From Victivallales bacterium (GTDB taxonomy: Bacteria; Verrucomicrobiota; Lentisphaeria; Victivallales; GWF2-50-93), in contig JBAQUG010000312.1 in the NCBI GenBank assembly GCA_049297395.1, positions 273 to 64,272 of the forward strand: a DNA stretch of 64,000 nt, given 5' to 3'. How positions within the stretch are numbered: position 1 is the stretch's first letter; the number at the start of each line of letters is the position of its first letter. A model generated the notes under the pieces. That model was not told where the DNA came from. It saw nothing but the letters and a program-made list of their open reading frames with translations, and did no database searches. The position numbers and the translations under genes were made by a program. This document shows, piece by piece, positions 18,375-54,044 of the stretch.

Positions 18375-19268
18375 TCAGTATATATCCCACCAGATTTTAG
18401 GGTTGTTTGCATTTGCCCACCCCACGCCAGGATAGAAACCAATATCCTTGGCTCTGACAGGTTCCGCATGTCCATCCACACATGAGATATTGGCGGTTTT
18501 GCCATGCCTTTGAATAATGCGAGAGCCATAAGTGTTGGGCTGTGCACCACCATTGATTGAGAGATCATAATATCCTGGCTCAGGGAGATCAATATGGCCA
18601 TACGATTCTATAAACTCGTCGGGATCTGTCGAAAGGGGATTTGCAATTACTGCGCAGTCCGCGAAAATAAAGGTCTCGGAAGGTTTCCTTATATTCTTAA
18701 CGCTGGCAGTACCATTGTAGCCGTTAAACCAATTTATCCCAATCCCGTAGTTGCCCCCTGATTTTGTGCCCGGACACCCCAGTTCAGGATAATAGTTCCC
18801 CCATCCGCTAGTCTGCTTCTTGTTGATATAAGGCGCTATCGTACAGGTCCAGAAGTTCCCGTAGTCGGAATCATATCTCTTGACAAGGTAGTCGTTATAG
18901 TCTATCGAATAGTTGATATCCGCAAGCATAAGCTGTTTCTCATTGTTGAGGCACTCCGTCTTTTTCGCCATATCCTTTGCGCTTTTCAACGCGGGCAGCA
19001 GCATTGCCGCAAGTATGGAGATGATGGCGATTACGACCAGCAATTCAATCAGGGTGAAGGCATTGACGAGTACCGAGTGCTGGATGCCGATTGCCGAGTG
19101 ACGAGTGTTGATTTTAAAACCAGCAGGGAAGGGATGGAGGACAGCCTGCGGTAGGACGGCTGGGAAGATGGAGGATGGCAGAGGGCAGACCGACGACTGA
19201 CGACTGCATTCAGATTGCCGATTTCGCAGAAGTCCGGAGTCTCCAAGGCTGTATTTTTTGCTTTCCAT
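18375..19268 (-). CDS. pseudopilin-like protein: prepilin-type N-terminal methylation-domain helix plus C-terminal H-X9-DG motif, with a long leader
   Basis: [28 protein letters not shown] matches the TIGR02532-type head. [14 protein letters not shown] is H-X9-DG (TIGR04294-type). ATG 19268 has AGAGGTG 4 nt upstream. The leader before FTLIELL is 77 aa. Confidence 0.9.
19059..19107 (-). repeat. seven imperfect heptads (coding-strand consensus CACTCGG) inside the pseudopilin leader
   Basis: Minus strand reads CACTCGT CACTCGG CAATCGG CATCCAG CACTCGG TACTCGT CAATGCC. This encodes ..[16 protein letters not shown] immediately before FTLIELL. Confidence 0.85.
19188..19208 (-). repeat. second leader heptad tract (coding-strand GTCGTCR), two units plus a degenerate third
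   Basis: Plus strand reads GACCGAC GACTGAC GACTGCA. The paralogous tract at 53943-53984 has five units plus a degenerate one. Confidence 0.85.
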
Positions 19269-19297
19269 GAAACACCTCTTTGGTTTAAACTCAAATT

Positions 19298-19338
19298 GTA
19301 AATATTCACTGAACTATGTTAGTTCAGTGAATATTTAC
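19298..19338. promoter_or_regulatory. perfect 19-bp inverted repeat with a 3-nt loop, spanning the regulator stop codon; terminator, attenuator or protein-binding site
   Basis: GTAAATATTCACTGAACTA tgt TAGTTCAGTGAATATTTAC; I checked the arms base by base. The right arm encodes the last five codons and the stop of 19324..20460. The pseudopilin ATG lies 29 nt beyond the left arm. The stem is AT-rich and has no clean U-run. Confidence 0.6.
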
Positions 19339-20460
19339 GACCGAACTTCTCTCCACTAGGCGGGGCTTAACTCCTATCCTTGTCACGCCGCTTAGATCTT
19401 TCCCCCCTATTTTCCCTGCAATTGTCTCTGCAACAACTCTTCCTATCTCTGAAAAAGGCCTTTCAATGCTGGTGAGATTATATTTCCCCGCAGTAGGGTG
19501 ATTGTCATATCCGACAATTGAAACATCTTGTGGAACCTTTAGTCCGATTTCCTCCAGAGCCTTGATCGCCCCCAGCGCCGCCATGTCATTGACGGCAAAG
19601 ATCGCAGTGAACTTTTCTTTTTTCATGGTCTCTTTGACAGACATATAGCCTAAATCAAAGAAATCTTCGTATTTCAATACATGCACACCGTCCTTGACTT
19701 CCAATCTCCTCCCGTAAATCAAACCTTCCCTGACTGGAATGTTATTTTCAACCAGAGCCGACTTGTATCCCTTCCGCCTGTTCTCAAGATAGTCGCCGGA
19801 AAAATTCATATGCAATATCGACCTGTGCCCGTTTCTTATCAGATGGGATGTGGCAAGGTAGGCTCCATGGGAATCATCTTCATAGACATTGTTGACCTCA
19901 AACGGAACGAGCCTTTCGGAGACGACAAACAGCTTTCCGGAACGGATAAGGAGCTCGACATGCTCCTTCAGCAGTCGCGTTGTAGACGTGTAAATCGGCT
20001 CAAACACTATCGCGCTGCTCGTGCCGGATATGGCATCTTCAATGACCTTCCGCTCAACCGAGATGTCTCCGTGCGTGTTGCTGAAAACCAGCTTGTATCC
20101 CGCGCTTTTCTTGATACCCTTCTCTATTTCAGCCATGACAGCCATGGCGCCCCATGTCCCGTCCGTGCCACCCGTAAAATCCACATGTGTCACAAATTCA
20201 ATTGTCTCATCCCGCCGGTCAGGCGGATTCAGGAAACCGGCCTTGCTTCCGACAAACGTTCCTTTGCCGTTGACAGAGACCACCGTGCCTTCGCTGGACA
20301 ACAGGGCTATGGCGCGTCTTACGGTGACAAGGCTCACCTCGCAGATGCTTACCAATTCCTTTTCGGAACAGAGACGATCCCCCGCCTTGAGTCCTTTTGA
20401 TCCTATCAGCCTGAGAATCTCTTTTTTTACAGCTTCGGTTTTCAGTATTCTGCTTAGCAT
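19324..20460 (-). CDS. GntR-type wHTH / LacI-type sugar-binding hybrid transcriptional regulator (AraR-like architecture), copy R1
   Basis: The N-terminal segment KAGDRLCSEKELVSICEVSLVTVRRAIALLSSEGTVVSVNGKGTFV is a GntR-type wHTH. The C-terminal segment FTAIFAVNDMAALGAIKALEEIGLKVPQDVSIVGYDN is a LacI/PBP1 signature. AAGGGGAG lies upstream of ATG 20460. Confidence 0.9.
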   Translation of the reverse strand: MLSRILKTEAVKKEILRLIGSKGLKAGDRLCSEKELVSICEVSLVTVRRAIALLSSEGTVVSVNGKGTFVGSKAGFLNPPDRRDETIEFVTHVDFTGGTDGTWGAMAVMAEIEKGIKKSAGYKLVFSNTHGDISVERKVIEDAISGTSSAIVFEPIYTSTTRLLKEHVELLIRSGKLFVVSERLVPFEVNNVYEDDSHGAYLATSHLIRNGHRSILHMNFSGDYLENRRKGYKSALVENNIPVREGLIYGRRLEVKDGVHVLKYEDFFDLGYMSVKETMKKEKFTAIFAVNDMAALGAIKALEEIGLKVPQDVSIVGYDNHPTAGKYNLTSIERPFSEIGRVVAETIAGKIGGKDLSGVTRIGVKPRLVERSSVVNIH

Positions 20461-20492
20461 CTTCTCCCCTTGGCTTTGTTATGCTATTTTAC

Positions 20493-20890: not shown

Positions 20891-20897
20891 TTTGTCT

Positions 20898-23150
20898 TCA
20901 GTATTCCGCCTGGGCTGTAAATACTCCGTTGCCGATCGTGGCGGCATAAAACCGGCCTTTCACATAATGGTCCCACTCGATATTGCTGTACATGGTTGTG
21001 GCATGCTTGTCCAGGGCGATGGGACGCCATGAATTGCCGGAGTCCGCGCTGACCAGGATGCCGGGCCGGCTCGGACTGAACCAGTTGGATATGAAACCCG
21101 CAAGCATGATGCCTTCCGTGTTGACGCAAAGAGTTTTCGCGCTGCGGTATGGGCCGGTGTCGATATGGCGCCAACGTGCATCTTCGAGTTTCCAGAGCCC
21201 CTTGTCGTAGAGCCCCGCCCAGAGACGTCCAGTCTGCGGATCAAGCAGTATGGTGCCGACACCGTGGCAGGCGTTGAGCGGGAGATTGAAGGTGATGTCC
21301 TCCCAGCTTTCCCCGCGATCAGCGGTTCGGAATATCCCGCCGAGCCGGCCAGCCGTGTAATAGATCCCCTCGTGGTCAGGATCGGCGATGAGCGAGCGTT
21401 CCATGTTGGCGTCGCACTGCGAGTAAAAATCCCAGCCGCGTACGAAATCACATGCGCGTCGAGTCCATGAGACGCCTTCGTCTTCGCTGACATAAAATCC
21501 GCCGCCGTCATCAAAGGAACAGCCAAGCGCGGCGCAGAGCGTGCCGGGACGGAACGGATCGATGACGATGTCCTTGATCCAGCGCGGACGGACAGGCATG
21601 CCACGGCAGGGCAGAGGTTTCCATGTCGCCCCTCCATCATCCGAGCGGATTATCACGGCGGTTCCACCTCCGCCATGCTGGGCCTGGTTCTGCGCGGCGT
21701 AGATGATTTCCGGGCGGTCCAGCCGCTGGGCGAACGACGAGCAAGCCGCCGAGTACTGTGTCAATTCCTCGGGTTTGACATCGGACGGACAGTAGACGCC
21801 GGCGTTCTTGAAGCCCAGGACCCGGTGAAGTTTCGTGACTCCGTCATCGCTCATCTGTACGCCGCCGTCTGTCTGAGCCACGGCGATCCTGCTCGCTTTT
21901 TTCGTGTTGCGGAGCGGATAGACCCGTTTGATGCAGGTGTTGACCAGCCCCTTTTGACATACTTTCCAATGTGTCCCGCCGTCATCGCTGCGCCAGACTC
22001 CGTGGAAATCGGTGAGATACACGCGGTCGGCCTGGTGCGGATCGAAGACGATTGAGGCGGTTGCCGCCATGAACTCCTCCCAGCCGACATCCATTCCGCA
22101 GGTGTCGACCGTTTCGCGGGAAGGGGAGCGCGTTTTCCATGAGTTCCCTCCATCATCGCTGATTCCGAGCACGTTGAGGGTCGAGGTGAGCAGGCGTCCG
22201 GGATTCCGGGGATCCATGGCAATGCTGTTCCATCCATAATAGTAACCCCAGTGATCCGTCTCCTTAGTTTTATCTGGTAATCCTGATGAAGACTCCTCCC
22301 AGGTCGTCCCGAAGTCGCGGCTCCGCCAGATGCCGTCGCGTTCGCATGCGGCGTAAATCGTCTCTCCCGCGGCCGCCAGCATCCTGACCGAGCGGTTCTT
22401 AAGTCCTGAGTTGACAATCCGTCCTGAGTTTGGATCCAGAAGATGTATCCCTCCTTCACTTCTCAGACCCCAATAAGTCTGTGCGTTCCGGCAGGCCGCC
22501 GCCAGCAGGAATCCGGATGGTCCCTCAAGCAGGCGGAGATCGTTGATCGCCTTGCCGCGGAGCGCCAGATAGCGGACGGTGACGCCGAAATCGTCGGAGA
22601 TGAAGACACCATCGCAGGTTGTTCCGATATAAACTCGGCCTTTGATTTCAGGATCGCACACGATCATCTGCCCGTGGACACGGCTGTCACCCGTACCGTC
22701 AATGACAAGATCGTGGGGCAGGGGCTTCCATGTCTCGCAGGCGTCGGTGGACAGGAAAAGCTCGCCGAAACGCGCGCCATCACCCGGTTTATCGCGGCGG
22801 AACACGCATCCGGTTGACGCCAGAAACATCCTGTCATCGAACGGATTCTGCGCAAGGGCGGAAAGCCCGTAGCGCCCGTCGTAGATATGCCAGTAGTAGC
22901 CCCATTTCCCCGGAAAGACCCCTGAAGGACTTTGATCCTCCATGGAAGGCGCCAGACCATTGTTGACCAATGCCCACGTCTCTCCGGCATCGAGGGATTT
23001 GCAGAGTCCGCCTACGTCGGAGCGGGCGTAGATGACATCCTGCCGCGTCCGATCACAGACGGTTTCGATTATGTATCCGTACATGTCCGGGCCGATGTTG
23101 CGCCAGGAGCATGGCAGTGCACCGGCCTCTTCTTTTACACATGATTTCAT
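20898..23150 (-). CDS. BNR/Asp-box beta-propeller protein, GH74-like (xyloglucanase-type) architecture
   Basis: 750 aa with nine S-x-D-x-G-x-(T/S)-W boxes: SLDAGETW, STDACETW, SRDFGTTW, SDDGGNSW, SDDGGTHW, SDDGGATW, SEDEGVSW, TADRGESW, SADSGNSW. The N-terminal WRNIG...YARSDVGG resembles GH74. No signal peptide. An ATGA overlap with the upstream gene lies at 23147-23150. Confidence 0.6.
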   Translation of the reverse strand: MKSCVKEEAGALPCSWRNIGPDMYGYIIETVCDRTRQDVIYARSDVGGLCKSLDAGETWALVNNGLAPSMEDQSPSGVFPGKWGYYWHIYDGRYGLSALAQNPFDDRMFLASTGCVFRRDKPGDGARFGELFLSTDACETWKPLPHDLVIDGTGDSRVHGQMIVCDPEIKGRVYIGTTCDGVFISDDFGVTVRYLALRGKAINDLRLLEGPSGFLLAAACRNAQTYWGLRSEGGIHLLDPNSGRIVNSGLKNRSVRMLAAAGETIYAACERDGIWRSRDFGTTWEESSSGLPDKTKETDHWGYYYGWNSIAMDPRNPGRLLTSTLNVLGISDDGGNSWKTRSPSRETVDTCGMDVGWEEFMAATASIVFDPHQADRVYLTDFHGVWRSDDGGTHWKVCQKGLVNTCIKRVYPLRNTKKASRIAVAQTDGGVQMSDDGVTKLHRVLGFKNAGVYCPSDVKPEELTQYSAACSSFAQRLDRPEIIYAAQNQAQHGGGGTAVIIRSDDGGATWKPLPCRGMPVRPRWIKDIVIDPFRPGTLCAALGCSFDDGGGFYVSEDEGVSWTRRACDFVRGWDFYSQCDANMERSLIADPDHEGIYYTAGRLGGIFRTADRGESWEDITFNLPLNACHGVGTILLDPQTGRLWAGLYDKGLWKLEDARWRHIDTGPYRSAKTLCVNTEGIMLAGFISNWFSPSRPGILVSADSGNSWRPIALDKHATTMYSNIEWDHYVKGRFYAATIGNGVFTAQAEY

Positions 23151-26100
23151 TTTTTCACCTGTTTTACTGTTTTCGGAACATGGGGAATCTCCATCATGAC
23201 GCTGCTTCCCGCAGGCACTGTTACCGCCTGTGAAAACGGCGGAGCCAGCACAAATTCCGCGGACAGGCGGACAGCCGCCTTGATTTCCCGGTCTGTCGAG
23301 TTGTGCGCCTCAATGGAAAACCCTCCCCGCCCATCAGGCAGCAAGGTCAGGATAAGATCGGTCTGGTCGCACGTCACCACGTTGCCGATCCAGACATCCC
23401 GATCCTGATTGAGCTCCAGAGCTGCATAAGCAGAATAAACGGCGGGGCCGGCCAGCTGCCCGGGAGTCAGCTTCAGGTCGTCCAGGACGCCAAGGGGCAG
23501 CCACCATTTCTCCTTCCGTTCCACAATACCCGAAGTCCAGTTGGGGTTCACACCGTGTATCCGGATCGGCAGGCGCGCAGGCAGGGCCGCCTTGCCGATC
23601 ACACCGCCAAAACCTCCGTCCCGGGCTTCGAGTTCCAGCACATAGCGGGTATTGAGAACCTTGCCAGTCCGGGGTGTAACGGAGTAGGCGGGTTTGCCGC
23701 CGTGGAGTCCAAACGCCCTGCGGAACGATTCGATCTCCCGTGTGTCGGGAGGAGTATTGATCGATCCGGTGAGCACCAGCAGGCGGAACGGAATGACATC
23801 GCCTTTCCGGTAATGTCCGCCGATCCGGCCGTACCCGCACCAGACCCGGAACAGGTTTTCAGAATGCAGCTCCTGGGCGACCAGCAACGGCTCGTCAAGG
23901 GGAAACAATGCACATGAGTCGTGCGAGGCCGCATAGGCGATGTATCCATTGGGCGGGAACGTCCTGACGAATGACGCGGGCTTTTCCTTCGGCGGCGCCG
24001 ATCCGGAAAGGAATTCACCGCCTGCGGGATCGATGAAGGACCAGTTGCACGTGTCATTCGAACGTCCGCTCAAGTTGTAGATGATGTGGCTGAAAGCATT
24101 CCAGTACCATCCATTCTTTTCCCATGTCCCGTCTTTGAGCATGGCGTAATAGCCTTCCATCAGCATGGTGGCCGGAGCATCGGGTGTTTTCTTGAACTCG
24201 ATGAAGCGGGCGTATGAATGATAGTCGTCGCGCTGGCGCATCGGCCAGAAACCGGTTTCATGCATGGGCCTGTCGGCCATGACACGCTCATTCATTTGTG
24301 CCTGGCATATGACGTCGCGGCTGCCAAGCGGATATTCCATGCGATAGACGGAAGCCATCGTGGTTCCCGGAGGTTGCGGAGACAGAATAGGAGCCCGGAA
24401 CTGAATGTCTTCGGCGCTGCCTCCCTGTGCATAGCCTCCCGGCGCCCCATCCCAATAAGGGGGGACACGGCTGACCGTCTGCGGGTTTCCCGGGAACGCC
24501 GCCGGGCTGCCGGCCACCTTCCATTGGTTGCCTGCGGCGGCCGACGCGACAGGATAACCTTGGCTATCCAGATCCCACGATTGGCTGAAGCTGTTCTGCC
24601 GGTCGCTGCACATGAATCTATAATTGGACTGGTCCTGGGCCCTGATCTCCGATGTCACGGCAATCCGACCGCCCTGGTCCCTCACTACGGCGACAAAACG
24701 GTGCTCGCAATCATGGAGGGCATGGATGAAGAAATCGCAAGTTCTACCATCAAGGCGATACCGGCGGAAAACTTTTGTCCCGTCATAAATTACCGCTTCC
24801 GCCAACGGCTGATCGGATTCCGCCTGCAGGCGCAGCATCAGGCGCTCGGTCCCGGGAATGCTCCGTCCAAAAGTACGCGGAGATAGATTGCACCCCCGCC
24901 AGCTCCTGATCAGCGGACCATTGGAAATCTGGGCGGGCCCGGTGTTGTCCGGGCTTTTCAGTGTCCGTCGCAACTCATCCTGATCGCCGCAGAACCGCAG
25001 GTTGAGGTACCGCCCCGCCGCCGCAGCCACCTGATCCGGCGATGTGATGAGATCCACCGCCACAGGCTGCGGGATGTCCCCCACCTGCGTCTGGTAAAGG
25101 AACGGTTCCAGATCAATGTCCGTCCTGCCGTCCCTGGTAGTCGTCACCGCCATGCTGTTGTAGGCGCGGCTGACCCACGACGGCGACGGCTGATTGCGCA
25201 GATCGAAGGGACCCAGCGTATTGACGCCCGCAGCAAAGTGCTCATACAGATAGTTGTTGATGCGTTTGCCGTCCTTGGTCAGGAAGTCGCGCTGGGGAGG
25301 CGAACTAAAGTCGCTGACGCGGAAATACCAGTCGCCAGCCTCACCCCGCCTTACCGCCTGTCCTGGAAGCACCAGCAGATCCGGACCGCTGGCTTTTCGG
25401 CACTCCTCACGGAACCGATCCCACTGTTCCCCGGACACGGAACTGATATCCTCCATCCATTCCATGAAACCTATGAAGTCGAGTTTGGCGGCCCGTGCGG
25501 CCGCCGCATATTCCGCAACGGTTCCCTTTCCGCCGGTAAGCTGGGTCCGCGCACCGATCACTCCACGGTACCAGCGGAGCTTCGGAGACGGATCGCCGAT
25601 CATCCGGGACCGCCAGTACTCAGTGCTTTCCTGCGCATTATCCGTACCTGCCGTCCATAGGATCGGATCAGGCAGTTTCGCCTTCTCGCGGGCCGGCTCG
25701 TTCCGATATCCGCCGTATTGCCCGCCTCCCTTGTCCGCCGCAGCCATTGACGGCGCGGCCAGCCATGCGAGGGTCTGTTCAAGCAGCCGCATGCCATCGG
25801 ATGTCCGTCCGTCCCCGCCGCGCGTGAAATGGATGTCCTCCACCATGTAATGTCCGAATTGAAAGAGCCCCTGCATTGGGCTCCATCCGAAAACGGCGGC
25901 CCGCCCCTGTTCAATCTGGCGCACGGCGGCCAGCGGAGGCGCCTTGGCGTAGGAACCCGGCTGTTTCTCATCCGGCCGCTCGTAATGCTGGTTCATGATG
26001 ATCGGGAAGCTCCGTGCCTGTTCCGTACCGCGTATGAGCACCTGCCATTCCGAACCGGGTTTCAATGGGTTGTCAGCGGCTCCGTACACGGTGCGCTCAG

Positions 26101-26716: not shown

Positions 26717-26719
26717 TGT

Positions 26720-31472: not shown

Positions 31473-31479
31473 GGGCTCT

Positions 31480-41223: not shown

Positions 41224-41427
41224 GGATGATTGGATGATCCGCCTACGCAGGGAAGCTACGGCGCGACAAGCTGGATTGCTGGATGCTTGCGTATCAAAGA
41301 CATAAGCATAGAACAATCCTGTAATAAATTCGCAAAATGACTTTTCCGTTTTTTGCATGCAAGATAGCCCTTTCAGATTTTATTTGAACTCAAACCCAAT
41401 CATCCATCCATCCGCCATCCTGTGGGA
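41211..41427 (-). repeat. copy (b) of the repeat element bounded by inverted repeats (long form), covering the 5' leader and start region of the A2 gene
   Basis: Minus strand reads TCCCACAGGATGGCGGATGGATGGATGATTGGGTTTGAGTTCA...CTTATGTCTTTGATAC...GGATCATCCAATCATCCATGGGACGGCAGTGG. A perfect 12-nt inverted repeat is formed by plus-strand ATGGATGATTGG (41222-41233) and CCAATCATCCAT (41396-41407). Confidence 0.7.
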
Positions 41428-41442: not shown

Positions 41443-42234
41443 TCAATAGTCATATCCCCAGTGTTCCCCTCCGAACCTGGATCCGGTCCAAATCCCCGGA
41501 AGCAGCGGGGCCTTTAACCCTTCCACATGACCTTCGGAATAAAGCATGTTGATGCCCCGGTTGTGGACATAGCGGACCGTGCGGGCCCCGACTGAAGTTA
41601 TTCCGTTGGGAATTGAACCGCTTCCGTCGTTGCAGCTCGCCTGCGTACGATGATAGTAGCCGTCAAACAAAAGATAGAGGCCGGCAGGATTCTTGATCGC
41701 CGATGTTTTTGCCCCCAGGGCCAGGCCGTCATGGACATAGGTTCCCGTGTTCCAATAGGTCCAGCTGTTTGACTGGTAGCTGTTGTTTGTCTCGCTTGAG
41801 GCAAACCCGCCGGGATATGTCTGGACCGTGTTTTCCGGACAGTTCAGGATGGAAGGATTTTTCCTGGAGAACAATGCGCTGTAGTCCTGGCCTGTCCCCT
41901 CGATGACGAATTGAAACCAGCCGTTATATGAACTGGTGCCGTCATAGTAGCAGTTTATGGGATAATAGGAGTTGTAGTCGGACGAATAGAAGTTGAAGGA
42001 CATTCCACACTGCTTGAGGTTGCTGATGCACTTGATGCTTTTCGCCTGGTCCCTCGCATTCTTCAGCGCCGGCAGCAGCATCGCCGCCAGTATTGCGATG
42101 ATCGCAATCACGACAAGGAGCTCGATGAGGGTGAAGGGGAGAACCCGTAATCCGTGACCCGTAATCCGTGGTCGGAGATTCGTAGCCTGTGTCCGCATCA
42201 TCTTCTTTTTAGCGAAAGCGTGTATGTCATTCAT
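41443..42234 (-). CDS. pseudopilin-like protein (H-X9-EG variant)
   Basis: [28 protein letters not shown] is the prepilin-type head. [14 protein letters not shown] is H-X9-EG. I start it at ATG 42234 (MNDIHAF...), 1 nt after the TAG of the upstream gene (42236-42238), with GGGAGGA upstream. The track start at 42267 overlaps that gene. Confidence 0.88.
42143..42170 (+). repeat. perfect 14-nt direct repeat x2 (two heptads each) in the pseudopilin leader
   Basis: ACCCGTAATCCGTG ACCCGTAATCCGTG. The 7-nt periodicity (CCGTNNN) continues to about 42193. Confidence 0.85.
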
Positions 42235-42235
42235 T

Positions 42236-45200: not shown

Positions 45201-46705
45201 ACGGAGATGTTCAAAAGTGCGCCCATCCCCTGATAAACGACTTGATGGCTCCATTCGCCGCGGCCTCTTCCTATCGAGAATTCGGCTCTGCCGTTCTTGT
45301 GCAATCGCTCGATCTCCTCTTTCGTCCAATCCGGCTCGGATTTTCCAACATACGTCCAGCCTTCCGGTTTGCCGGTCTCCCCGTCCTCGACGGTTCCGTT
45401 GCGAAGGAGGTTTTCAGCATACGTTACACCATCGGATGGTCTTACGTTTTTCCTGATCACCATGGAGGTTTTACATTTCTCCGCCTGCGCCCAGGAAAGG
45501 CTCAGGTCGTCGAACCATGCGGTTCCACGGCAAAGCTGCAGTCCGGCAGTGGCTCGGACGGACACCGCGTCGGCGGGCGGACGCGATCTCGGTGTTCTGA
45601 CCTTCGTCCAATCGGTTTTAAGAGGAACCGTCTGGGAGATGATCGGCTCGCCGAGCGGCTGGCCATCCTTGTCGAGAAACTGCAGGCAGAGGGCTCCGCC
45701 GCCAATCGGGCCATCCGGACCGAGATCGCCGCTTTTCACGAAGCCGGAAAGACAATATGATTTCCCTTCTTCGACAGGAACTTGCGCCGACCATCCGGAA
45801 AAAATGCCGGAGCCTGTGTCGGAGACGGCTGCCGCCCGTTTTTCCGAGTGGACAGGCAGATCTACGAGTTCTTTTTTGCCAGAGCCGGTCGGCATCCAGC
45901 CCGCTGGATTGCCTTTTCCGTCCAATTCCTCGAAACCAGGATTGGGAAGAAGGTTGTCCGCGCTTTCCTCGATCCGGTCTCCTATGCCCGCAGTGCCATC
46001 CACCTCATTAAAGACAATATCGTCGATCCAAACCCTGGGAGAGCACTCTTTTTCAGCAGTATGCAATGCGAACCGCAGCATTGCCGAAACGGCTCCGGCG
46101 GGGGCGAGCATGGGAGTACCGTCGCCACCCATGGCGAAACGACGGTTATTCGACTCGACCCATTGTCCGGTGTCGGCCTGCTGGTTCATCACCCATATGT
46201 TTTTCCTGCCATCCTCCACGGAAGATCCTTTGCCGTCAAGCCAGAAGACGGTGACTCCAAGGTTGGCGTAGCCTCTTTTCGGATCGCTGCGGTCTTCCTG
46301 CGAGAGCCCAGCCGATTTGAACCAGAAAGAAAAATCGTATGAGGAACCAGCCTTGACTGGGACTCTCTGGCTTATGATTACGAACCCATCAAGTTTGTTG
46401 CCGAGAAGATGAGTGAGAAGATTCGGAGCCGTCATGGCCTTGTCATCAAGGTCAAGGGGATGTGTCTGTTCAAGGACAAGGCTCCGTTTTCCTGAATGAA
46501 ATTCCTTCTCGTCGATTCTGGCGTTCCCGCCGTTCCGGCCGGCCTCTTTGTGGATGGTCCAATCGGCGGACGAGGCGTCGGACACGTTTTCGAAACCCGG
46601 GTTGAGGACTTGATTGTCCGCTTCCGCCGTCATCGCTGAAAAGAGAAGGGACAGTATCGCCAGGATGCATGCCTTTAAATTCATATTTTCGCAACTTTTC
46701 CTCAT
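42236..46705 (-). CDS. giant secreted multi-CBM protein: three CBM4_9-like modules, a central TIM-barrel-like region and a C-terminal CBM9-like module
   Basis: The ORF is 42236..46744, and the track start is a TTG. I start it at ATG 46705 ([29 protein letters not shown]) because this N-terminus is homologous to that of 52305..53108. NPGFENV, NPGFEEL and RNGTVEDG mark the module heads. [11 protein letters not shown]...[13 protein letters not shown] is CBM9-like. Confidence 0.75.
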
Positions 46706-46740
46706 TTTAAAAACCTTTCCTGTTTGAAATTGCCTCATTA

Positions 46741-47520
46741 TCAATAACCGAATCCCCAGAAATCACGATCAACCGGAACTGCCGCTATCCCGGTCCATGG
46801 GGCAGGGATCATCATGCACCTTGTAAGGTCAACGTGTGAATCAACATATATGAAATTGGCGTTTCCGTTATGCCGTACTGATCCGACATAGAAATTCCCG
46901 CCGGGGATTGCCCATGGGTTCCACGACGCATATAATCGGAATCCAGTTGGTTCACTGTAGTGACTGTCAGAAAACATAAACGTTTCTGAAGGGGTTTTCA
47001 CCTGCCCGATCTTGACGAGCGTCACGCCGACAGGAGGACTGGAGGCCTGCCCGTTGAACCCATTGTTCCCTATGCCGTTCACCCCGTAATGGACGGATAT
47101 TGCGGTATTGGTCTCGGAAGGGCATGAAAATATGCCTGGGCTGTGGATGAGCCACTGGTAGGTTGCATTGTTCTCGGGCTTGTTGCCAAGATAGGAATAA
47201 AGGATTCCAGACCATCTATGGAACGATACGTCGTCATCAACGCCGGTCGGTATCATGAATTCATTATAATCGGACGCATAGAAGGACATCGCCCCTCCGA
47301 TCTGCCTGAGATTGCTCTTGCATGCCGCGCCTTTTGCCTGGTCCCTTGCATTCTTCAGCGCCGGCAGGAGCATCGCCGCAAGTATCGCGATGATCGCGAT
47401 TACGACAAGGAGCTCGATGAGGGTGAACACATTGCCGAGTGCCGATTGCCGAGTGTCGATTTTAAGACCAGCAGGGAAGTGACCGAGTGCCGAGTGACGA
47501 GTGTTGATTTTATCGGTCAT
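46741..47520 (-). CDS. pseudopilin-like protein (H-X9-DS variant)
   Basis: [44 protein letters not shown] is the prepilin-type head. [14 protein letters not shown] is H-X9-DS. I start it at ATG 47520 (MTDKINTRH...), 7 nt after AGGAGGAA. The track start at 47598 is a TTG. Confidence 0.88.
47428..47503 (-). repeat. two heptad tracts (coding-strand CACTCGG type) in the pseudopilin leader
   Basis: Plus strand: CACATTG CCGAGTG CCGATTG CCGAGTG (47428-47455) and CCGAGTG CCGAGTG ACGAGTG (47483-47503). These encode the duplicated (I/K)(N/D)TRHSALG unit. Confidence 0.85.
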
Positions 47521-47601: not shown

Positions 47602-50600
47602 TCATTTCAGGAGGATCTCCCCCCATTTGCCGGTCGAGAAATCCGCCTCCGTGGGGAGGTCGGGGAAAAACGGGGAGCGGTTGAAGACGCGGAGATGCTC
47701 GCAGCGGTTCCTTCCGGTTGAGTCGGCAAAGACTACTCCGACATCTCCTAGCAGTTTCATTCCTGCGACGGGCTTGATGCCGAGCTCCGGCCATGGCACC
47801 ACTGCCTCCAGCACATATCCGGTCGGCGTCTCGGCGATGACGACCTTGGCCTTGTCCAATTTCTTCACCTCGTCGAATGCGACGTTGCCGTTCCCGCTGC
47901 CGAAGAAGATTTTCTTCCCCTTGAATCCCGGCACGGTTGTCCGGTATATGATGGCTGTGTTTTCGTCTCCGATCTTGCTGAACAGCAGACGCATGTCGCC
48001 CTCTACCGGATTCTTCCTGGCGGATGTCCTGGTGCCGAGGTAGATCCCGGCGCAATCGCCCGAAGCGAAGAGCTGTTGAAGTGATTCGCCGGAGTTCCTG
48101 AAGCCGTTGGGGCGGATCACCTCGTAGGCCGCATAGAGGTTGTCGGCATCGTACGCCAGTCGGACGGAGGCGCGCATGACGGCGGTTCTGGCTCCGAGGG
48201 ACAGGGCCGATTGGTGCTCCCATTCGTCCAGTTTTCCGTCCGCAGTGAATGGCTTTTCAGTTTTCGCCACGACGATCTCCTTAGTCCTGGTCTCAACGTC
48301 GGCGTCAATGCGCCCCTTCTTTATGGCGATGGCCTTGTCGACATGCGCCTGCGTAAGCTCCACGGAGGCCTCGCGGCGCCTGATGGTTTCAAGTCCTGTT
48401 ATCTCCAGGATGTTGCGTTCCGTCATGCCGTTTATGACGTAGATTTTCCCGTCCGCAGTCTGGTTCATCTGTTCGACCGCCTCTCCGAGCAGGACATCGG
48501 GGCCTGGAGTCGTGGCTGCAGCCTCCGCCCTGAGTACGCTGGCGACAAAGAATCCGTCCGTCGTAACGAGCGGCATCCTGTCTCCATGGTATTGTGAAAG
48601 GGAGATCATCTGCCCCATTTTATTTGGCAGATCGACGGGGCCGAGCACGGCGTTGCCGTTGATTGTTCCGACATCCGGAGACTTGGTGATAGGATATCTC
48701 CATAGCAATTTACCGTCCGAAGAGTATCCCACCATGGCTGGATTGATGTTCACCCACTGGCGGCACTCGGCGTTGCAGGCGGCGATGACGCGGCCTTCCC
48801 GGTCTACTCCTAATGACGGGGAGTAGCAGTATGGAACCGACTCCACCATCTTCTCAGCCTTGTTCGGGTCATATATCGGCGCGCCGCAGCCGGTCCAGCC
48901 GAGGACTTTCAGCCGATAGATCCCGCTGCCAGGAATATGCGATCCGAAATAGATCGACAGGTCGTCGCCGATCCCGCAGCCCCATCCTCCGCTGAATTGA
49001 CTTTGCTTGAGGCCGGGGGAGGGGAAGAGTACCTCCCCGGGGTCGACCAGGCCGTCGCCGTTGCGGTCGCTCCAGGCGAAGTTGTCGCCTTTCTTCTTCC
49101 CCCTGAACGCCTCCGGATAATATTCGCTGGTCCATGCGGCGGGATCAAGCGCGCGCAAGGCGTCGTCCGCCTCGACGAAGTCGTTCCGCATGGAGCCTAC
49201 GGCCGCAAGGGGCCGGTAGACTCCGTCCTTCAACTCGCCAAGCACCGCCTCGTTCTGCATGGCGCCGCCGCCGAGAAGGAAGCTTCTGCCGTCTTTCCTG
49301 ATCATCCGCAATGGGGCGGGATAGGTGCTTCTGGAATAGCAGCCGAAGCACGCGTTCAGAGCCTGACGGCGCCATATGGTGGAGATCGGATGCCATGTTT
49401 TTTTCGCCCAGTCCAGCTCGTACTGCGTGAGCAGGGAACCGATAGCCCTGGTCTTGTCGAACGGATCGATCAGCGTACCGAATTCCGTCGAGGTCGGACC
49501 GATGAACTCTTTTATCAGCCTGCCGCTGCCGGCATCCCATTTGCTCACGCGCCGCGGAAACTGGTCGTCCTCGGCGACCCACAGATGACCATTCTTGTCA
49601 AGCGCCAGCTGCCTGGGAAAGAGCATGCCCGACGGATCGTACGCCCCGATGACGGCCCGTCCGCCGTTCTTTCCAATTACGCGCTGGAAAGAGCCGTCAG
49701 CTCCAAACACCTTGACGCACATCGATTTCCCCCAGTCTGACACGTAGATGGAACCTGCGGCGTCGACGCAGACGCCGACGGGCGCATCAAGATGGTCTTT
49801 GACTACAGTCTCGGATTTTCCGCTTTCCGGATCAATCGCCAGGACGCTCTTTTCCGACACCGTCAACAGTCGTCCTTTCTGATCGAAGGAGAGGCCGCAA
49901 GGACGCCTGACTGGAATTTCCTTCAGCGTCTCAGCCGTAGCGGCATCCAATACCACCACCTTGTCGAACTGGAAGAATGACACGTATAGGCGCTTGTCCT
50001 TGACGGCGACTCCCATCACATTGGCTCCATTTCCCTTATATGGTTCGTTCATGCGTGACATTGCGAAGTTCGCGGGCGTGAATCCGGTCCTGGCGGCGTC
50101 CCACCACCAGGCGTGTTCGGCCTTGGAACGCTCCCACCACATCAGCTCGTTGTACTGCTTGCCCATTGTGAAGCCGCGGCGCAGGCCGGTCTTTTTGTCG
50201 ATGCAGACCAGATATGAAAGGACTTTCCCTTTCCACTGGGCGCCTCTTATGATATCAGCGGCGAGGTAGAGATACCGCTCATCGGCGGCAAGGCTGCACG
50301 TTCCAGTGTGCCCTCCGACAAAGTCGCCTATCATCCCCCACTGTCTTTGACCGTCGAGGCCGGCGGCCACCATGCCTCCGCCTTTCTCGGCGGCCGGCCA
50401 TCCTATGAAGACCTGTTCGCCGGAAGTCGCCACCCCCTGCGCCGGCTGGCGGTCGGATCCCCATCCGCCCGTACCGTCCTCGTTGAACCACGGCGGATTG
50501 CCCGGTGTCTCGAAGCTCATCTGGTATTCCCAGCCGATTCCAGTATGGCTGAGGGATCTGCATGTGTATCTGCCGGGGGGCAGTATTTGTCCGTCCATGT

Positions 50601-52269
50601 CGAGGCCATCCCATCCTCCGATGGAATCGCCCTCGCCGCGGGGCGAGCAGGCCATGAGGTTGCGCACCCGTTCACCCTTCTCGTTGTCAATGACGACTGT
50701 TACGAACTCCTTGCGCTCCACCTTCCATGGCAGCTCCACCACTTCGGCGCGCGATAGGATTCTTCCGTTGAAGTTGAAGGGGAGGCGCGGGCCTTCGACT
50801 CCGGACCACCATGCATCGACCATCCAGCGGAACTGGTCTCCCGCACGCAACGGCCTGCCGTCGCGCGTAATGACTGCCCATGGCAGGAAGATCTCCTGGC
50901 AATAGCCGCCGTCAGTGGAGCTGAAAGCTTCCTTGGCTCCCTTGTCCTGGAGGTCGTCCATTGAATATTTCCAGCCTTCGGTCGGAGAGGCGAGAGCCTG
51001 CTTCAACGCCGCTTTCCGGACCGTTGCGCAGTACCACCCCTCAATGACCGAGACCATATCCGTCTTCAGCCTGAGCTGCAGGGCTCCTCCGCCATCGTAT
51101 CCCCATGGGAAGCGGTCGGGCCGGTTCACATTGTAGCACGGCTTCAAATCATGCCAGATCAAGCCCACGTATAAGCCCATCTCGTCATACATCATGTGCA
51201 GCCGGGTGTCGTAGCGCCCGCGGAAGAGCTCCGGCTCATAGGCGATCAGCACCTCTCCTGAGACGTCCCATTCGTCAAGCTTGCCGTCGACTACCACCGG
51301 GGTCTTGACGGGCATGACGGATATCTTCGTGTTGCGGGTGAGCTGCCGTCCCTCGTGCATGGTGATGGCAGGTTTCGCGGACTCGCCGCCACCTTTTGCC
51401 TCAAGTGTGGCGATGGCGCCCTGCTCGACTTTCATCGACAACTTGTCGGCGAACTGTGTCCCATCCATCAGAGAGAAAGCCATCAGGCCGCCGAACCGGG
51501 CATCCAACTTTTCGTGCATCGTACCTTTTGTGACTTCGGCCCAGACCTTGTACGCCGCCTCCGGATCGAGTCCGTCGAACCATAGATCGCATCCGACCCT
51601 GAGGATTGAATCGCCGTCGAGGGGTTTGCCGTCGGACGTCAGCAGCTTCCAGTCGATTCCCAGTTCCTGCCCGTACCCCTTTCCGTCGGGCTTGATCTTG
51701 AACGCCTGCCTCACGCCGGAGATCTCGTGCCCTGATTTGACATCATCCGTTCCGTCCTGTCCGTAGCCTATTTTGACTGCCGTTTTCGATGAACTGCTGT
51801 CGAACCAGCCCTGGAGATGGAAGAGGCGGTCGGTCCTGATACGCAGATCGAGACAGTCCCCGCCGTCGCGTCCTGCCTGCGCCTTTTCAGGGTTGGATCC
51901 ATTCGCCATCGGGGATTTGCCGTTCCACTCGATGAAGACGTACAGGGCGTCGGCATCGTAGCACATGGCGACTCTGGCAGTGTATTCCTTCGTGTAGGCT
52001 CCGCCCTGGAGGAACTTGCCGGATGCGAGATCCCATTCGGCGGAGTCTCCGTCAATGGACACCTTGCCCGAAGCCGGAGGAACCGGGATTTCGCCCACGA
52101 ATCGCTCGCGTCCGCCGCCGGCTTCAAGAGGGATGGCGGAAAAGAGAACGGCGGCAATCACGGATGTTCCCGCAACGAAGGATCGGAAATCCGAGCGTGC
52201 CTTCACGAATTTGAAGATGCCCGCAAGTCCATCAATCAACATGGCACACTCCTTCTTTATCCGATTCAT
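47602..52269 (-). CDS. giant secreted protein: two N-terminal CBM9-like modules, a central NHL-repeat beta-propeller and a C-terminal CBM9-like module
   Basis: 1555 aa; the alternative ATG 52242 also has a good AAGGAG. SIDGDSAEWD..CYDADALYVFIEW, VVDGKLDEWD..MMYDEMGLYVGLIW and TADGKLDEWE..LAYDADNLYAAYEV are CBM9-like. GSIYVSDWGKSMCVKVFGADGSFQRVIG and NGHLWVAEDD are NHL-like. DRNGDGLVDPGEV is a Ca-binding-type loop. Confidence 0.75.
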   Translation of the reverse strand: MNRIKKECAMLIDGLAGIFKFVKARSDFRSFVAGTSVIAAVLFSAIPLEAGGGRERFVGEIPVPPASGKVSIDGDSAEWDLASGKFLQGGAYTKEYTARVAMCYDADALYVFIEWNGKSPMANGSNPEKAQAGRDGGDCLDLRIRTDRLFHLQGWFDSSSSKTAVKIGYGQDGTDDVKSGHEISGVRQAFKIKPDGKGYGQELGIDWKLLTSDGKPLDGDSILRVGCDLWFDGLDPEAAYKVWAEVTKGTMHEKLDARFGGLMAFSLMDGTQFADKLSMKVEQGAIATLEAKGGGESAKPAITMHEGRQLTRNTKISVMPVKTPVVVDGKLDEWDVSGEVLIAYEPELFRGRYDTRLHMMYDEMGLYVGLIWHDLKPCYNVNRPDRFPWGYDGGGALQLRLKTDMVSVIEGWYCATVRKAALKQALASPTEGWKYSMDDLQDKGAKEAFSSTDGGYCQEIFLPWAVITRDGRPLRAGDQFRWMVDAWWSGVEGPRLPFNFNGRILSRAEVVELPWKVERKEFVTVVIDNEKGERVRNLMACSPRGEGDSIGGWDGLDMDGQILPPGRYTCRSLSHTGIGWEYQMSFETPGNPPWFNEDGTGGWGSDRQPAQGVATSGEQVFIGWPAAEKGGGMVAAGLDGQRQWGMIGDFVGGHTGTCSLAADERYLYLAADIIRGAQWKGKVLSYLVCIDKKTGLRRGFTMGKQYNELMWWERSKAEHAWWWDAARTGFTPANFAMSRMNEPYKGNGANVMGVAVKDKRLYVSFFQFDKVVVLDAATAETLKEIPVRRPCGLSFDQKGRLLTVSEKSVLAIDPESGKSETVVKDHLDAPVGVCVDAAGSIYVSDWGKSMCVKVFGADGSFQRVIGKNGGRAVIGAYDPSGMLFPRQLALDKNGHLWVAEDDQFPRRVSKWDAGSGRLIKEFIGPTSTEFGTLIDPFDKTRAIGSLLTQYELDWAKKTWHPISTIWRRQALNACFGCYSRSTYPAPLRMIRKDGRSFLLGGGAMQNEAVLGELKDGVYRPLAAVGSMRNDFVEADDALRALDPAAWTSEYYPEAFRGKKKGDNFAWSDRNGDGLVDPGEVLFPSPGLKQSQFSGGWGCGIGDDLSIYFGSHIPGSGIYRLKVLGWTGCGAPIYDPNKAEKMVESVPYCYSPSLGVDREGRVIAACNAECRQWVNINPAMVGYSSDGKLLWRYPITKSPDVGTINGNAVLGPVDLPNKMGQMISLSQYHGDRMPLVTTDGFFVASVLRAEAAATTPGPDVLLGEAVEQMNQTADGKIYVINGMTERNILEITGLETIRRREASVELTQAHVDKAIAIKKGRIDADVETRTKEIVVAKTEKPFTADGKLDEWEHQSALSLGARTAVMRASVRLAYDADNLYAAYEVIRPNGFRNSGESLQQLFASGDCAGIYLGTRTSARKNPVEGDMRLLFSKIGDENTAIIYRTTVPGFKGKKIFFGSGNGNVAFDEVKKLDKAKVVIAETPTGYVLEAVVPWPELGIKPVAGMKLLGDVGVVFADSTGRNRCEHLRVFNRSPFFPDLPTEADFSTGKWGEILLK

Positions 52270-52304
52270 ACTATGTCTCCCTATGTGATATTATGTGGTT
52301 CATA

Positions 52305-53108
52305 TCATTTCCCTGCCGCATCGTCTACACGAAGCTGGATGCCGGAGACAGCCAGACGCCCCGTGTCGGCATGCGGTCCGGTGGTCATTCCGAAGACGAG
52401 CATGTGGGTGAACTGCGCCATATTCCCCTGCGGCTCCTTTTTCCAGGGGGCTTCGAGAACCGGCTCCTTCCCGCCGTTCACGAATATGGCGAACGTGGCG
52501 TCCCGCCGTCCGCCGTCCACCACTATTTCGAAGAGGATCGGCTTGTTGGGACGGTATTGGCAGATGTCGGCCATCAGCTCGCCGCCCTTGGGATCAGGAC
52601 GCATGCCCGCCCGGATCACCCCGTCACGGAAAAAGTAGATCGTGCAGATTTCCACGCCGGATCGGGCGAACAGGCTCACGCCACCTATCTGCATGAGTTT
52701 CTCAGCCGCGATTTCGAAGCGGAGACGCCACCTGGGCACGTTCCAGTGCGATGGAGGAACAGCGAGCCCGAGCCACGGTCCGCGGCCCGAGCCTTTCTCC
52801 CGGTCGGCATCGTTCACCACCATCTGGCAGGAACGCCCCTTGATTCCACAGAAGTCCTCCGCAACTACGGCGAAACGCGTCGGTAATATAAACTGCATGC
52901 TGGAGAACTGGGTCAACGGCAAGGACGGAGGCGTGTCGCGTTTCTCAAGCATGACGGTGTCGGTGAGTCCGCTCAGTTTTGGCGGTGTTCCGACGCTGTC
53001 CGAATCGAAGCGCAGATCCCACACAAGTTCCCCGGCAGCCGCCGTCATCCCTGAGAAGAGAAGGCATAGGATTGTCGGTAAGCACATATTTAAAAGACTT
53101 TTTCTCAT
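52305..53108 (-). CDS. secreted hypothetical protein (beta-sandwich or lectin-like guess only)
   Basis: 267 aa. AAGG lies upstream of ATG 53108. The signal peptide MRKSLLNMCLPTILCLLFSGMTAAAG is homologous to that of 42236..46705. Confidence 0.65.
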   Translation of the reverse strand: MRKSLLNMCLPTILCLLFSGMTAAAGELVWDLRFDSDSVGTPPKLSGLTDTVMLEKRDTPPSLPLTQFSSMQFILPTRFAVVAEDFCGIKGRSCQMVVNDADREKGSGRGPWLGLAVPPSHWNVPRWRLRFEIAAEKLMQIGGVSLFARSGVEICTIYFFRDGVIRAGMRPDPKGGELMADICQYRPNKPILFEIVVDGGRRDATFAIFVNGGKEPVLEAPWKKEPQGNMAQFTHMLVFGMTTGPHADTGRLAVSGIQLRVDDAAGK

Positions 53109-53147
53109 TTCAAAACCTTGCCTTTACTGTTTGAAATTGCCCCATTA

Positions 53148-54044
53148 TCAGTAGCCGAATCCCCAGAAATCACGATCAACCGGAACTGCCGCTATCCCGG
53201 TCCATGGCGCAGGGATCATCATACACTTTAAAATGTCGACGTGTGAATCAACATATATGAAATTGGCGTTCCCGTTATGCCGTACTGATCCGACATAGAA
53301 ATTCCCGCCGGGGATTGCCCATGGGTTCCAAGGGGCATATATTCGGAATGCAGCTGACTCGTTGTAGTAGCTGTCGGAAAACATAAACGTTTTTGAAGGG
53401 GTTTTCTCCTGCCCAATCTTGACGAGCGTCACGCCGACAGGAGGATTGGCGGCCTGGCCGTTGAACCCATTGTTCCCTATGCCGTTCACCCCGTAATGGT
53501 TGAAGTTCGCAGTTTTGGTTTCGGAAGGGCATGTGAAAATGCTCTGGTGCGACGACAGCCAAACTGCGGTTGCATTGGTCTCGGGCTTGTTGCCAAGATA
53601 GGAATAGAGAATTCCATACCATCTATGGAAAGAGACGTCGTCATCAACACCAGTCGGTATCATGAATTCATTATAATCGGACGCATAGAAGAACATTGCT
53701 CCTCCGATCTGCCTGAGATTGCTCTTGCATGCCGCGCCTTTCGCCTGATCACTTGCATTCTTCAGCGCCGGCAGCAGCATCGCCGCCAGTATTGCGATGA
53801 TCGCAATCACGACAAGGAGCTCGATGAGGGTGAACACATTGCCGAGTGCCGAGTGGCGAGTGTCGATTTTAAGACCAGAAGGGAGGGGATGGAGGACAGC
53901 CTGCGGCAGGACGGCAGGGAAGGTGGCGGATGGCAGAGGGCAGACCGACGACCGATGACCGACGACCGACGACCGACGACTGCATCCAGATTGCGGATTT
54001 CGCAAAAGTCCGGAGTCCTCAAGGCCGTGTTTTTTGCTTTCCAT
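53148..54044 (-). CDS. pseudopilin-like protein (H-X9-DS variant) with a 70-aa leader
   Basis: The mature part is nearly identical to 46741..47520. The 5' UTR and the distal leader ([16 protein letters not shown]...) match those of 18375..19268. ATG 54044 has AGAGGTG upstream. Confidence 0.9.
53835..53862 (-). repeat. four leader heptads (coding-strand CACTCGC CACTCGG CACTCGG CAATGTG)
   Basis: Plus strand reads CACATTG CCGAGTG CCGAGTG GCGAGTG. This is three units fewer than the homologous tract at 19059-19107. Confidence 0.85.
53943..53984 (-). repeat. five heptads plus one degenerate (coding-strand GTCGTCG) in the leader
   Basis: Plus strand reads GACCGAC GACCGAT GACCGAC GACCGAC GACCGAC GACTGCA. 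This is three units more than 19188-19208 and adds the 7 aa VGHRSSV in frame. Confidence 0.9.

Follow-up and report, generated by a model that had tools for sequence, protein, structure and literature searches.

A Lentisphaerota polysaccharide-utilisation locus built of tandem cassettes in which a pilin-like DUF1559/H-X9-DG gene precedes giant exported enzymes

We analyzed a stretch of 64,000 nucleotides (the window) of contig JBAQUG010000312.1 from a Victivallales bacterium (GenBank assembly GCA_049297395.1), in which all 29 open reading frames (ORFs) of substance lie on the minus strand (Table 1). The window is a polysaccharide-utilisation super-locus of Lentisphaerota (Victivallales-like) with at least seven tandem cassettes. 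A cassette consists of a pilin-like gene, here called P, which opens the regulated operon, followed by one to four Sec-exported, mostly giant proteins resembling glycoside hydrolases (GHs) or carbohydrate-binding modules (CBMs), and is sometimes headed by an AraR-type repressor with a promoter of its own; genes of cytoplasmic glycosidases and of an ATP-binding cassette (ABC) sugar importer close the last cassette. A previous sequence-only reading of the same DNA had placed the ends of six P genes (P1–P6 in the direction of transcription) at 54044, 47520, 42234, 36429, 31115, and 19268, which we confirmed. Its description of the locus as an array without SusC/SusD, similar to a polysaccharide-utilisation locus (PUL) and with a pilin-like gene opening the blocks, is supported by our data, except that its rule of one pilin per enzyme block has to be relaxed: P does open the blocks, and one P is found per operon segment of one to four exported proteins, not strictly per enzyme.

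All six P proteins begin with FTLIELL(V/I)VIAII followed by an identical stretch of 10 residues, and all six have an H-X9-(D/E)(G/S) motif 28–36 residues from the C-terminus, so both sequence signatures reported earlier are present throughout. F+1 and E+5, characteristic of a prepilin-type N-terminal helix, are invariant in P1–P6, and every P scored above the cut-off of the NCBIfam prepilin N-terminal domain (TIGR02532: 21.3–26.9 bits, cut-off 16.3). Pfam N_methyl (PF07963) also matched all six (20.3–26.5 bits), P6 alone exceeding the cut-off of 21.2. PF07596 (DUF1559/SBP_bac_10, cut-off 23.3 bits) was matched above its cut-off by P1 (31.8) and P2 (28.8) and below it by P6 (21.2), P3 (19.9), and P5 (17.3); P4 had no match, and precomputed PF07596 matches are present in P4 homologues. 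TIGR04294 was reported for P5 alone (17.6 bits, cut-off 19). Matches to the NCBIfam PilA and ComGC models were confined to the P helix and fell far below the cut-offs, and a profile of the six P proteins searched against the PDB matched solved type IV pilins and GspG over the N-terminal helix alone.

Modelled by AlphaFold2 together with 69 homologues (pLDDT 88.4), mature P4 has a pilin-like lollipop shape, with a 53-residue N-terminal helix (residues 3–53) and a small beta head. The solute-binding-protein fold implied by the Pfam name SBP_bac_10 was rejected, because the model is pilin-like and Foldseek returned no binding-protein match. A search of 1.84 billion proteins with the head of P4 alone yielded only 310 representative clusters (E ≤ 1e-3), whereas the helix is common to thousands. 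P is a fast-diverging head on an invariant pilin-type helix: the N-terminal stretch of 24 residues, including F+1 and E+5, is nearly invariant across paralogues and phyla. In the 69 homologues, four residues of the H-X9-DG region (H193, N198, D203, and H205 in mature P4 numbering) are nearly invariant, and C36 and C100 are fully so, which suggests a disulfide between the two cysteines and a possible metal-binding site at the H-X9-DG-H motif.

Table 1. Features of the 64-kb window, in the direction of transcription (P, pilin-like DUF1559/H-X9-DG gene; cargo, exported protein encoded after P)
Feature	Position	Strand	Remarks
big0, giant GH42-like exported enzyme	60139-64000	-	Cut by window edge; weak Pfam Glyco_hydro_42
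cbm0, small exported CBM_4_9 protein	59451-60098	-	Pfam CBM_4_9
502-aa and 731-aa genes	55674-59424	-	Close the first module; no signal peptide; no informative Pfam match
R1, AraR-type regulator	54376-55521	-	GntR winged helix-turn-helix (HTH) and LacI-type Peripla_BP_3 sensor
P1, pilin-like DUF1559/H-X9-DG protein	53148-54044	-	70-aa leader by ORF; Val at -1
267-aa exported protein, first P1 cargo	52305-53108	-	Signal peptide; no Pfam match
1555-aa exported protein, P1 module	47602-52269	-	NHL repeat, FlgD_ig-like domain, signal peptide
P2	46741-47520	-	85% identical to P1
1489-aa exported CBM4_9/CBM9 protein, P2 cargo	42236-46705	-	
P3	41443-42234	-	Start 1 nt past stop of 1489-aa cargo
1386-aa exported GH42/GH2_N-like giant, P3 cargo	37198-41358	-	
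239-aa exported CBM_4_9 protein	36450-37169	-	Pfam
P4	35569-36429	-	74% identical to P3
1341-aa exported GH42-like giant, P4 cargo	31480-35505	-	
129-aa truncated CBM-like ORF	31116-31505	-	Own signal peptide; TAA abuts P5 ATG
P5	30282-31115	-	Sole P with TIGR04294 match
P5 cargo block	20898-30247	-	1175-aa and 1189-aa exported paralogues (family unassigned), then 750-aa BNR/sortilin-like protein
R2, AraR-type regulator	19324-20460	-	66% identical to R1
Perfect palindrome, 41 nt, 19-bp arms	19298-19338		Spans R2 stop codon and promoter-like region of P6
P6	18375-19268	-	
P6 module	382-18316	-	Exported GHL10-like giants of 1329 and 1397 aa, four proteins without signal peptide, ABC fusion
Tandem repeats in leader-coding parts of P genes	53943-53980, 53840-53866, 47433-47503, 19188-19206, 42143-42170, 36280-36312		

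The cassettes are tightly packed. The gaps between P and the next gene are 39, 35, 84, 63, 34, and 58 nt for P1–P6, respectively, and the gene directly 3′ of P, usually a giant resembling a GH or a CBM protein, encodes a signal-peptide-like N-terminus in six of six cases. Some genes later in the modules lack a signal peptide, so the claim of signal-peptide-bearing blocks holds for the first cargo gene and not for every one after it. P1 and P2 are preceded by the ribosome-binding sites (RBSs) AGAGG and AGGAGG, respectively, the latter before the ATG at 47520. Of the two tight junctions pointed out earlier, TAG-A-ATG at 42232-42238 was confirmed, the 1489-aa cargo ending at the TAG and P3 beginning at the ATG; TAAATG at 31113-31118 is also real, its TAA ending a previously unlisted ORF of 129 aa (31116-31505) and not the giant gene. 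Because gaps are only 1–84 nt from P1 to the 1341-aa gene, this segment (53148 down to 31480) is probably transcribed as a single long unit. At its end, the 1341-aa gene overlaps the 129-aa ORF by 26 nt. The product of this ORF is a homologue of the N-terminal halves of two full-length CBM_4_9 proteins, cbm0 and the 239-aa protein, which are paralogues of each other; the ORF looks like a truncated copy, so that a pair of giant and small CBM protein is present three times.

The two regulators, R1 and R2, both matched Pfam GntR (3e-13 and 7e-14) and Peripla_BP_3 (7e-26 and 4e-26), in agreement with the earlier statement that two modules are headed by paralogous GntR/LacI hybrids. AraR of Bacillus subtilis is such a chimera, with a GntR-family HTH fused to a LacI/GalR-type effector domain. 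R1 and R2 share with it this architecture, the position at the head of glycan-degradation operons, and a palindrome (at the R2/P6 junction), and differ from characterised AraR-type members in that sequence similarity to them is low. R1 is preceded by a promoter-like TTGACG-16-TATAAT (55586-55559) and R2 by a 12/12 sigma-70-like TTGACA-16-TG-TATAAT (20520-20493). The palindrome at the R2/P6 junction, GTAAATATTCACTGAACTA-ACA-TAGTTCAGTGAATATTTAC, could be the R2 operator or, alternatively, a terminator or attenuator of R2; its half-site occurs once in the window and not upstream of other P genes.

Annotations of the cargo in Pfam are weak yet consistently carbohydrate-related. The P6 module encodes, in order, a 1329-aa GHL10-like, a 581-aa, a 1397-aa GHL10-like, a GH31-like, a URO-D-like, and a GH35 protein and a fusion of a solute-binding protein with a permease; the 581-aa, GH31-like (588 aa), URO-D-like (358 aa), and GH35 (768 aa) proteins are without signal peptides, and the 750-aa protein of the P5 module has no evident one. 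The fusion protein at the end of the P6 operon (927 aa; 382-3165, minus strand) joins SBP_bac_1 (extracellular solute-binding) to BPD_transp_1 (ABC permease) and is likely the inner-membrane sugar importer of the locus. A Pfam search of every ORF in the window detected no domain of SusC/SusD, secretin, ATPase or platform of type II secretion systems (T2SSs) or type IV pili, or prepilin peptidase, in line with what had been concluded before.

A P gene is visible in every block except the first, where the ORF of big0 is open to base 64000. A close relative's contig (locus L168) carries, in this order, the tail of a regulator, a P protein 87% identical to P4 (P0), and a giant with 97.5% identity to big0 and with 76 more N-terminal residues that include a signal peptide. 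This order and the open ORF indicate that the block is headed by a regulator and a P just outside the window. A further locus (L169) has a P3 orthologue of 98% identity with the same junctions.

The same cassette recurs in more distant loci. The closest P4 homologues of other assemblies all sit in it: in three loci (L081, L082, and L083), a GntR/Peripla_BP_3 regulator, P, and a giant of 1106–1325 aa follow one another; another locus (L084) has three cassettes, and a fifth (L085), whose P (P0087) is labelled Victivallis vadensis by NCBI, has a regulator, P, and GH42 with a 4-nt overlap. About a dozen more cassettes, either regulator-P-giant or P-giant-P-giant (as in L030), were present on Lentisphaerota-labelled contigs among 80 genome-scan loci. 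The association was quantified in 160 loci (80 from the genome scan and 80 metagenomic), which exclude hand-picked loci and represent a sample and not a census; taxon labels are record titles, and P proteins of the scan loci have only ~30–37% identity to those of the window. Divergent regulators were found by an iterated hidden Markov model, phmmer searches with R1 and R2 having missed them.

In 36 Lentisphaerota loci, a co-directional gene of at least 600 aa lies within 150 nt 3′ of P in 40% of cases vs. 6% for other genes (odds ratio = 9.4, P = 5e-8), and a regulator lies 5′ of P in 30% vs. 3%. No enrichment was observed in 51 loci of other phyla. A test across the Planctomycetes–Verrucomicrobia–Chlamydiae (PVC) bacteria without a split by taxon gave weak enrichment only; splitting by phylum label, or by the residue preceding F+1 (position -1), confines the signal to one class. 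In the 160 loci, a tight co-directional gene of at least 600 aa follows 35% of P genes with a residue other than Gly or Ala at -1 (non-G/A; n = 49; 21–50% when bootstrapped by locus), compared with 6% of those with Gly or Ala (G/A-type; n = 142) and 5% of non-P genes (bootstrap ranges of the two comparison groups, 2–11% and 4–6.5%). The regulator is upstream of 30% of non-G/A P genes, 2% of G/A-type P genes, and 0.4% of non-P genes, and the median length of the gene 3′ is 747, 186, and 294 aa, respectively. Giant neighbours of P are downstream in 16 cases and upstream in four. Cargo 3′ of P in relatives includes CBM9, pectate-lyase-like, GH42, GH5, GH78, GH95, GH67N, and heparinase domains.

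One could argue that these numbers reflect no functional link at all, and that P genes, being numerous, come to lie beside large genes for secreted proteins at random or through hitch-hiking in duplications. The family is indeed hugely expanded (7439 of 8000 scored candidates at E ≤ 1e-5, with dozens of copies per genome), and the G/A-type P genes of other phyla have no enriched neighbours. However, the 7- to 10-fold enrichment holds against non-P genes of the same loci as well as against G/A-type P genes and is robust to bootstrapping, the orientation bias is strong, the regulator frequencies differ as widely as given above, and the cassette is kept between distant Lentisphaerota whose P proteins are only 30–45% identical. 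We therefore consider chance adjacency very improbable. The regulator-P-giant-enzyme layout is thus supported as a conserved, strongly enriched, and directional architecture in Lentisphaerota, and the enrichment expected from the sequence-only reading is borne out for Lentisphaerota or non-G/A P genes and absent for G/A-type P genes and other phyla.

P and its downstream gene duplicate together as a module. P1 and P2 belong to a duplication with 91–93% DNA identity that covers ~40 nt before FTLIELL, the rest of P, the spacer, the RBS, and the first ~26 codons of the next gene; it stops near the predicted signal-peptide cleavage site (46680-47460 vs. 53080-53870, minus strand). A portable head composed of P and a signal peptide has thus been joined to two unrelated protein bodies. 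The giants big0 and the 1341-aa P4 cargo are paralogues with 62% identity, and the similarity of P0, P4, and P3 parallels that of their GH42-like cargo: P0 and P4 are 87% identical and their giants 62–66%, whereas P3 is 74–77% identical to either and its giant 31% identical to theirs. Similarly, the P homologues of L082 and L083 precede homologues of one giant family; the giant of L081 is homologous to the 1175-aa and 1189-aa P5 cargo. Among 25 cassettes compared for covariation, cargo was homologous in three pairs, all of them among the most similar P pairs, a sparse set. P diverges much more slowly than its cargo.

The proposal that each pilin is the dedicated partner of its neighbouring cargo is therefore upheld in one respect, as modules co-duplicate and the P tree parallels the cargo tree in these two groups (P0/P4/P3 and L082/L083). 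It is not established as a cargo-specific partnership, because P1 and P2, with 85% identity, precede unrelated cargo, and P3 and P4, with 74% identity, precede cargo of 31% identity. The linkage between P and cargo is strong, and the dedicated-partner claim is supported in part.

What P does in such a cassette may be read in several ways. The reading we favour, with chances that we judge to be about even, is that P would be an operon-supplied type IV filament subunit that helps to export or display the co-expressed giant enzymes. It is favoured because of the extreme conservation of the assembly helix together with the tight directional association with Sec-exported enzymes, and because in Verruconatronum one pseudopilin is encoded in an alginate-induced lyase cluster and another is over-expressed on alginate (PMC13274419). 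The product sugar would relieve repression by the AraR-type regulator, and P and the enzymes would then, we infer, be made from one mRNA. The enzymes would reach the periplasm through Sec, while P would use its invariant helix to insert in the inner membrane and would join a shared type II secretion or type IV filament machine encoded elsewhere. In this machine it could serve as a filament subunit, or as a tip or adaptor, moving the giant enzymes across or onto the outer membrane, and a pilin supplied with each enzyme operon might scale or tune the machine to the induced cargo load.

Several observations weigh against P being such a filament subunit. The window contains no secretin, ATPase, platform, or prepilin peptidase gene; the GspG model (TIGR01710) scored 24–36 bits against a cut-off of 88.85, over its first ~57 positions, i.e., the helix; and the best Foldseek matches of the P4 model, although they are full-length pilins (1oqw, 8tj2, and 8uhf), are not significant (E ≥ 0.09). 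The near-identity of P1 and P2 in front of unrelated cargo bodies counts on the same side. The enrichment statistics rest on a crude ORF caller and a signal-peptide heuristic, both our own. A further difficulty lies in the residue before F+1, which is V, V, P, L, D, and A in P1–P6, respectively, and neither Gly nor Ala in 37 of 43 Lentisphaerota homologues (G in 4 and A in 2), almost any residue being found; this class is confounded with phylogeny, the non-G/A class being essentially Lentisphaerota. The leaders are also long, 31–70 aa from RBS-supported ATG starts (P1–P6, by ORF).

In homologues from other phyla (Planctomycetota and Verrucomicrobiota), -1 is Gly or Ala in 46 of 48. Many relatives have MKK-type leaders of 3–10 aa. 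Canonical prepilin peptidase needs Gly, or rarely Ala, at -1 and should not cleave sites of the non-G/A kind. Lentisphaerota would thus either follow a different processing rule or leave P uncleaved. A start of P1 and P2 at a GVG-encoded GTG directly before F+1 was considered and not favoured, since the ATGs further upstream have strong RBSs in front of them and a GTG of this kind is lacking in P6.

Short tandem repeats, mostly heptamers (e.g., GACCGAC ×5.4), occur inside the leader-coding parts of P1, P2, P3, P4, and P6. A change in heptamer copy number would shift the frame, which makes phase variation of P expression conceivable. P1 and P6 (53840-54073 vs. 19085-19297) have ~90% DNA identity from 30 nt before the ATG, including the RBS, to the FTLIELL codons, the leader differences being two 21-nt indels, in frame; past FTLIELL, the two proteins have only 45% identity. 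This suggests that the two P genes adjoining a regulator have recently exchanged 5′ leader sequence.

Doubt about canonical processing, raised by the loss of Gly/Ala at -1 in the cassette class, brings in a second reading, in which P would remain uncleaved and act as a pilin-derived, inner-membrane-anchored periplasmic chaperone, dock, or pilot for the adjoining giant enzyme. LipB/CpaB of Acinetobacter are membrane-anchored chaperones encoded beside their type II secretion substrates, and an Acinetobacter study reportedly deals with specific membrane-associated chaperones for T2SS substrates. P resembles LipB/CpaB as a small, N-terminally membrane-anchored protein whose gene adjoins that of the exported enzyme served; in contrast to them, it keeps the full pilin assembly helix, has no sequence relation to them, and can stand before several exported proteins. 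In favour of this analogy, Gly/Ala(-1) was lost specifically in the cassette-linked class, several leaders are long and variable, P and cargo co-duplicate, and the Tuwongella homologues fractionate with membranes (PMC8567305). However, near-invariance of the 24-residue helix with F+1 and E+5 goes far beyond the needs of an anchor and, holding as it does across paralogues and phyla, points to interaction with filament-assembly machinery. A chaperone of this kind is also hard to reconcile with 85% identity of P1 and P2 before unrelated cargo and with one P for up to four exported proteins, and we deem it unlikely.

A third reading concerns uptake. With no SusC/SusD or TonB-dependent receptor in the window, though an ABC importer is present, passage of the glycan through the outer membrane is unaccounted for. 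P might fill this gap as a substrate-capture pilin analogous to SusD, its variable head binding the target glycan or oligosaccharide and a retractile type IV-like fibre, or a pseudopilus spanning the periplasm, carrying this glycan across the outer membrane to be degraded 'selfishly' in the periplasm. Pili-dependent mucin uptake is known in Akkermansia, and fibre-mediated polysaccharide uptake has been proposed for Planctomycetes. A fast-diverging head on an invariant stalk is what substrate-specific binding modules are expected to look like, the near-identical P1 and P2 in adjacent modules of one operon would fit a shared substrate, and Kiritimatiella also lacks TonB-dependent uptake (PMC5148204). 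On the other hand, neither Pfam nor Foldseek with the P4 model revealed a carbohydrate-binding domain or fold in P, the statistical association is with signal-peptide-bearing giant enzymes and not with transporters, and the missing Gly(-1) and the missing machinery count here as well. Capture by P therefore seems rather doubtful to us.

Whether P exports, displays, or captures, the locus combines traits of known systems. Like the DUF1559/SBP_bac_10 (PF07596)/TIGR04294 family, P has an invariant N-terminal helix, a C-terminal H-X9-DG, and many paralogues; P1 and P2 match the Pfam DUF1559 model, and signal-peptide neighbours of family members were noted in Tuwongella (PMC8567305). Unlike the G/A-type members sampled, P has a non-G/A residue at -1 and sits in regulator-P-giant-enzyme cassettes, and four of the six P proteins are below the Pfam cut-off. 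With GspG/PulG and the pullulanase (pul) paradigm, the window shares a class III signal-like helix with F+1 and E+5 and Sec-exported polysaccharide-degrading enzymes under a sugar-responsive regulator. P differs from GspG/PulG in its mature length of ~230 aa, its unrelated head, and the absence of gspC-O nearby; moreover, there is one pilin gene per enzyme operon here, whereas a T2SS has one pseudopilin set per machine.

The parallel with PULs of Bacteroidota is similarly partial. Both have modular, substrate-dedicated clusters of secreted carbohydrate-active enzymes (CAZymes) with their own sugar-responsive regulator, arranged in tandem, and both have one small nonenzymatic 'signature' gene per module. 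The window, however, lacks SusC/SusD and a TonB-dependent transporter, its signature gene is pilin-like, its regulator is a cytoplasmic AraR-type repressor, and uptake at the inner membrane is by an ABC system.

Partial precedents exist, and to regard such a locus logic as never described, as the earlier reading might suggest, is too strong. In the planctomycete Tuwongella, genes with N_methyl and SBP_bac_10 are often flanked by signal-peptide genes and encode proteins recovered from membrane fractions (Seeger et al. 2021, PMC8567305). In the verrucomicrobium Verruconatronum, the alginate-induced lyase cluster includes the gene of a pulG-like pseudopilin, which has 67 paralogues, and the further pseudopilin over-expressed on alginate is encoded outside the clusters (PMC13274419). 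Copy numbers are 67–91 per genome in two published PVC genomes and at least 41 in each Planctomycetales genome (PMC13274419, PMC8567305). The Kiritimatiella literature consulted does not mention pilins, and our literature searches found neither the regulator-P-enzyme cassette described as a phylum-wide rule of Lentisphaerota nor any account of the missing Gly(-1). Both this conserved architecture and the Gly(-1) loss therefore appear to be new; the protein family itself was already known.

It is possible, if still short of probable, that Lentisphaerota evolved their own equivalent of a PUL, with a plug-in pilin per glycan operon, processed in a noncanonical way, giving an operon-specific function to a shared type IV filament machine. 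If so, the DUF1559/H-X9-DG expansions would acquire a function, either export or display of giant enzymes or capture of the cognate glycan, and a prepilin-processing rule unlike the textbook Gly(-1) would be added. The family is among the largest paralogous families of PVC bacteria, with dozens to ~100 copies per genome, and the cassette ties these pilins, to which no function has been assigned, to secreted enzymes in a testable manner. The matter bears on how enzymes are exported, or glycans taken up, without SusC/SusD in Lentisphaerota, Kiritimatiellota, and Verrucomicrobiota. It can be tested directly, since P is first in sugar-regulated enzyme operons of one phylum, modules duplicate whole, and the canonical peptidase site is lost; the culturable Victivallis vadensis has a regulator-P-GH42 cassette. 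The cassette also provides a practical rule for finding glycan-degradation loci of Lentisphaerota and new CAZyme families, as many giant neighbours have no Pfam domain.

A few further features of the window and of the sampled loci deserve mention. The URO-D (uroporphyrinogen decarboxylase)-like gene (5444-6520, minus strand) overlaps the GH31-like and GH35 genes on its two sides by 4 nt each; such a gene is unusual in a glycan operon. A common C-terminal peptide, IINNIEIGCEA(D/E) (31480-31532 and 60140-60191, minus strand), closes the two most similar GH42-like giants, with 88% DNA identity at the very end, and might serve as a conserved signal or have a structural role. The G/A-type DUF1559 genes (loci L001–L167, mostly Planctomycetota and Verrucomicrobiota) tend to precede small genes, unlike the Lentisphaerota pattern, and this may be a separate conserved pairing. 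Downstream of the last gene of the window lies an array of CACTCTC ×10.6 (286-359).

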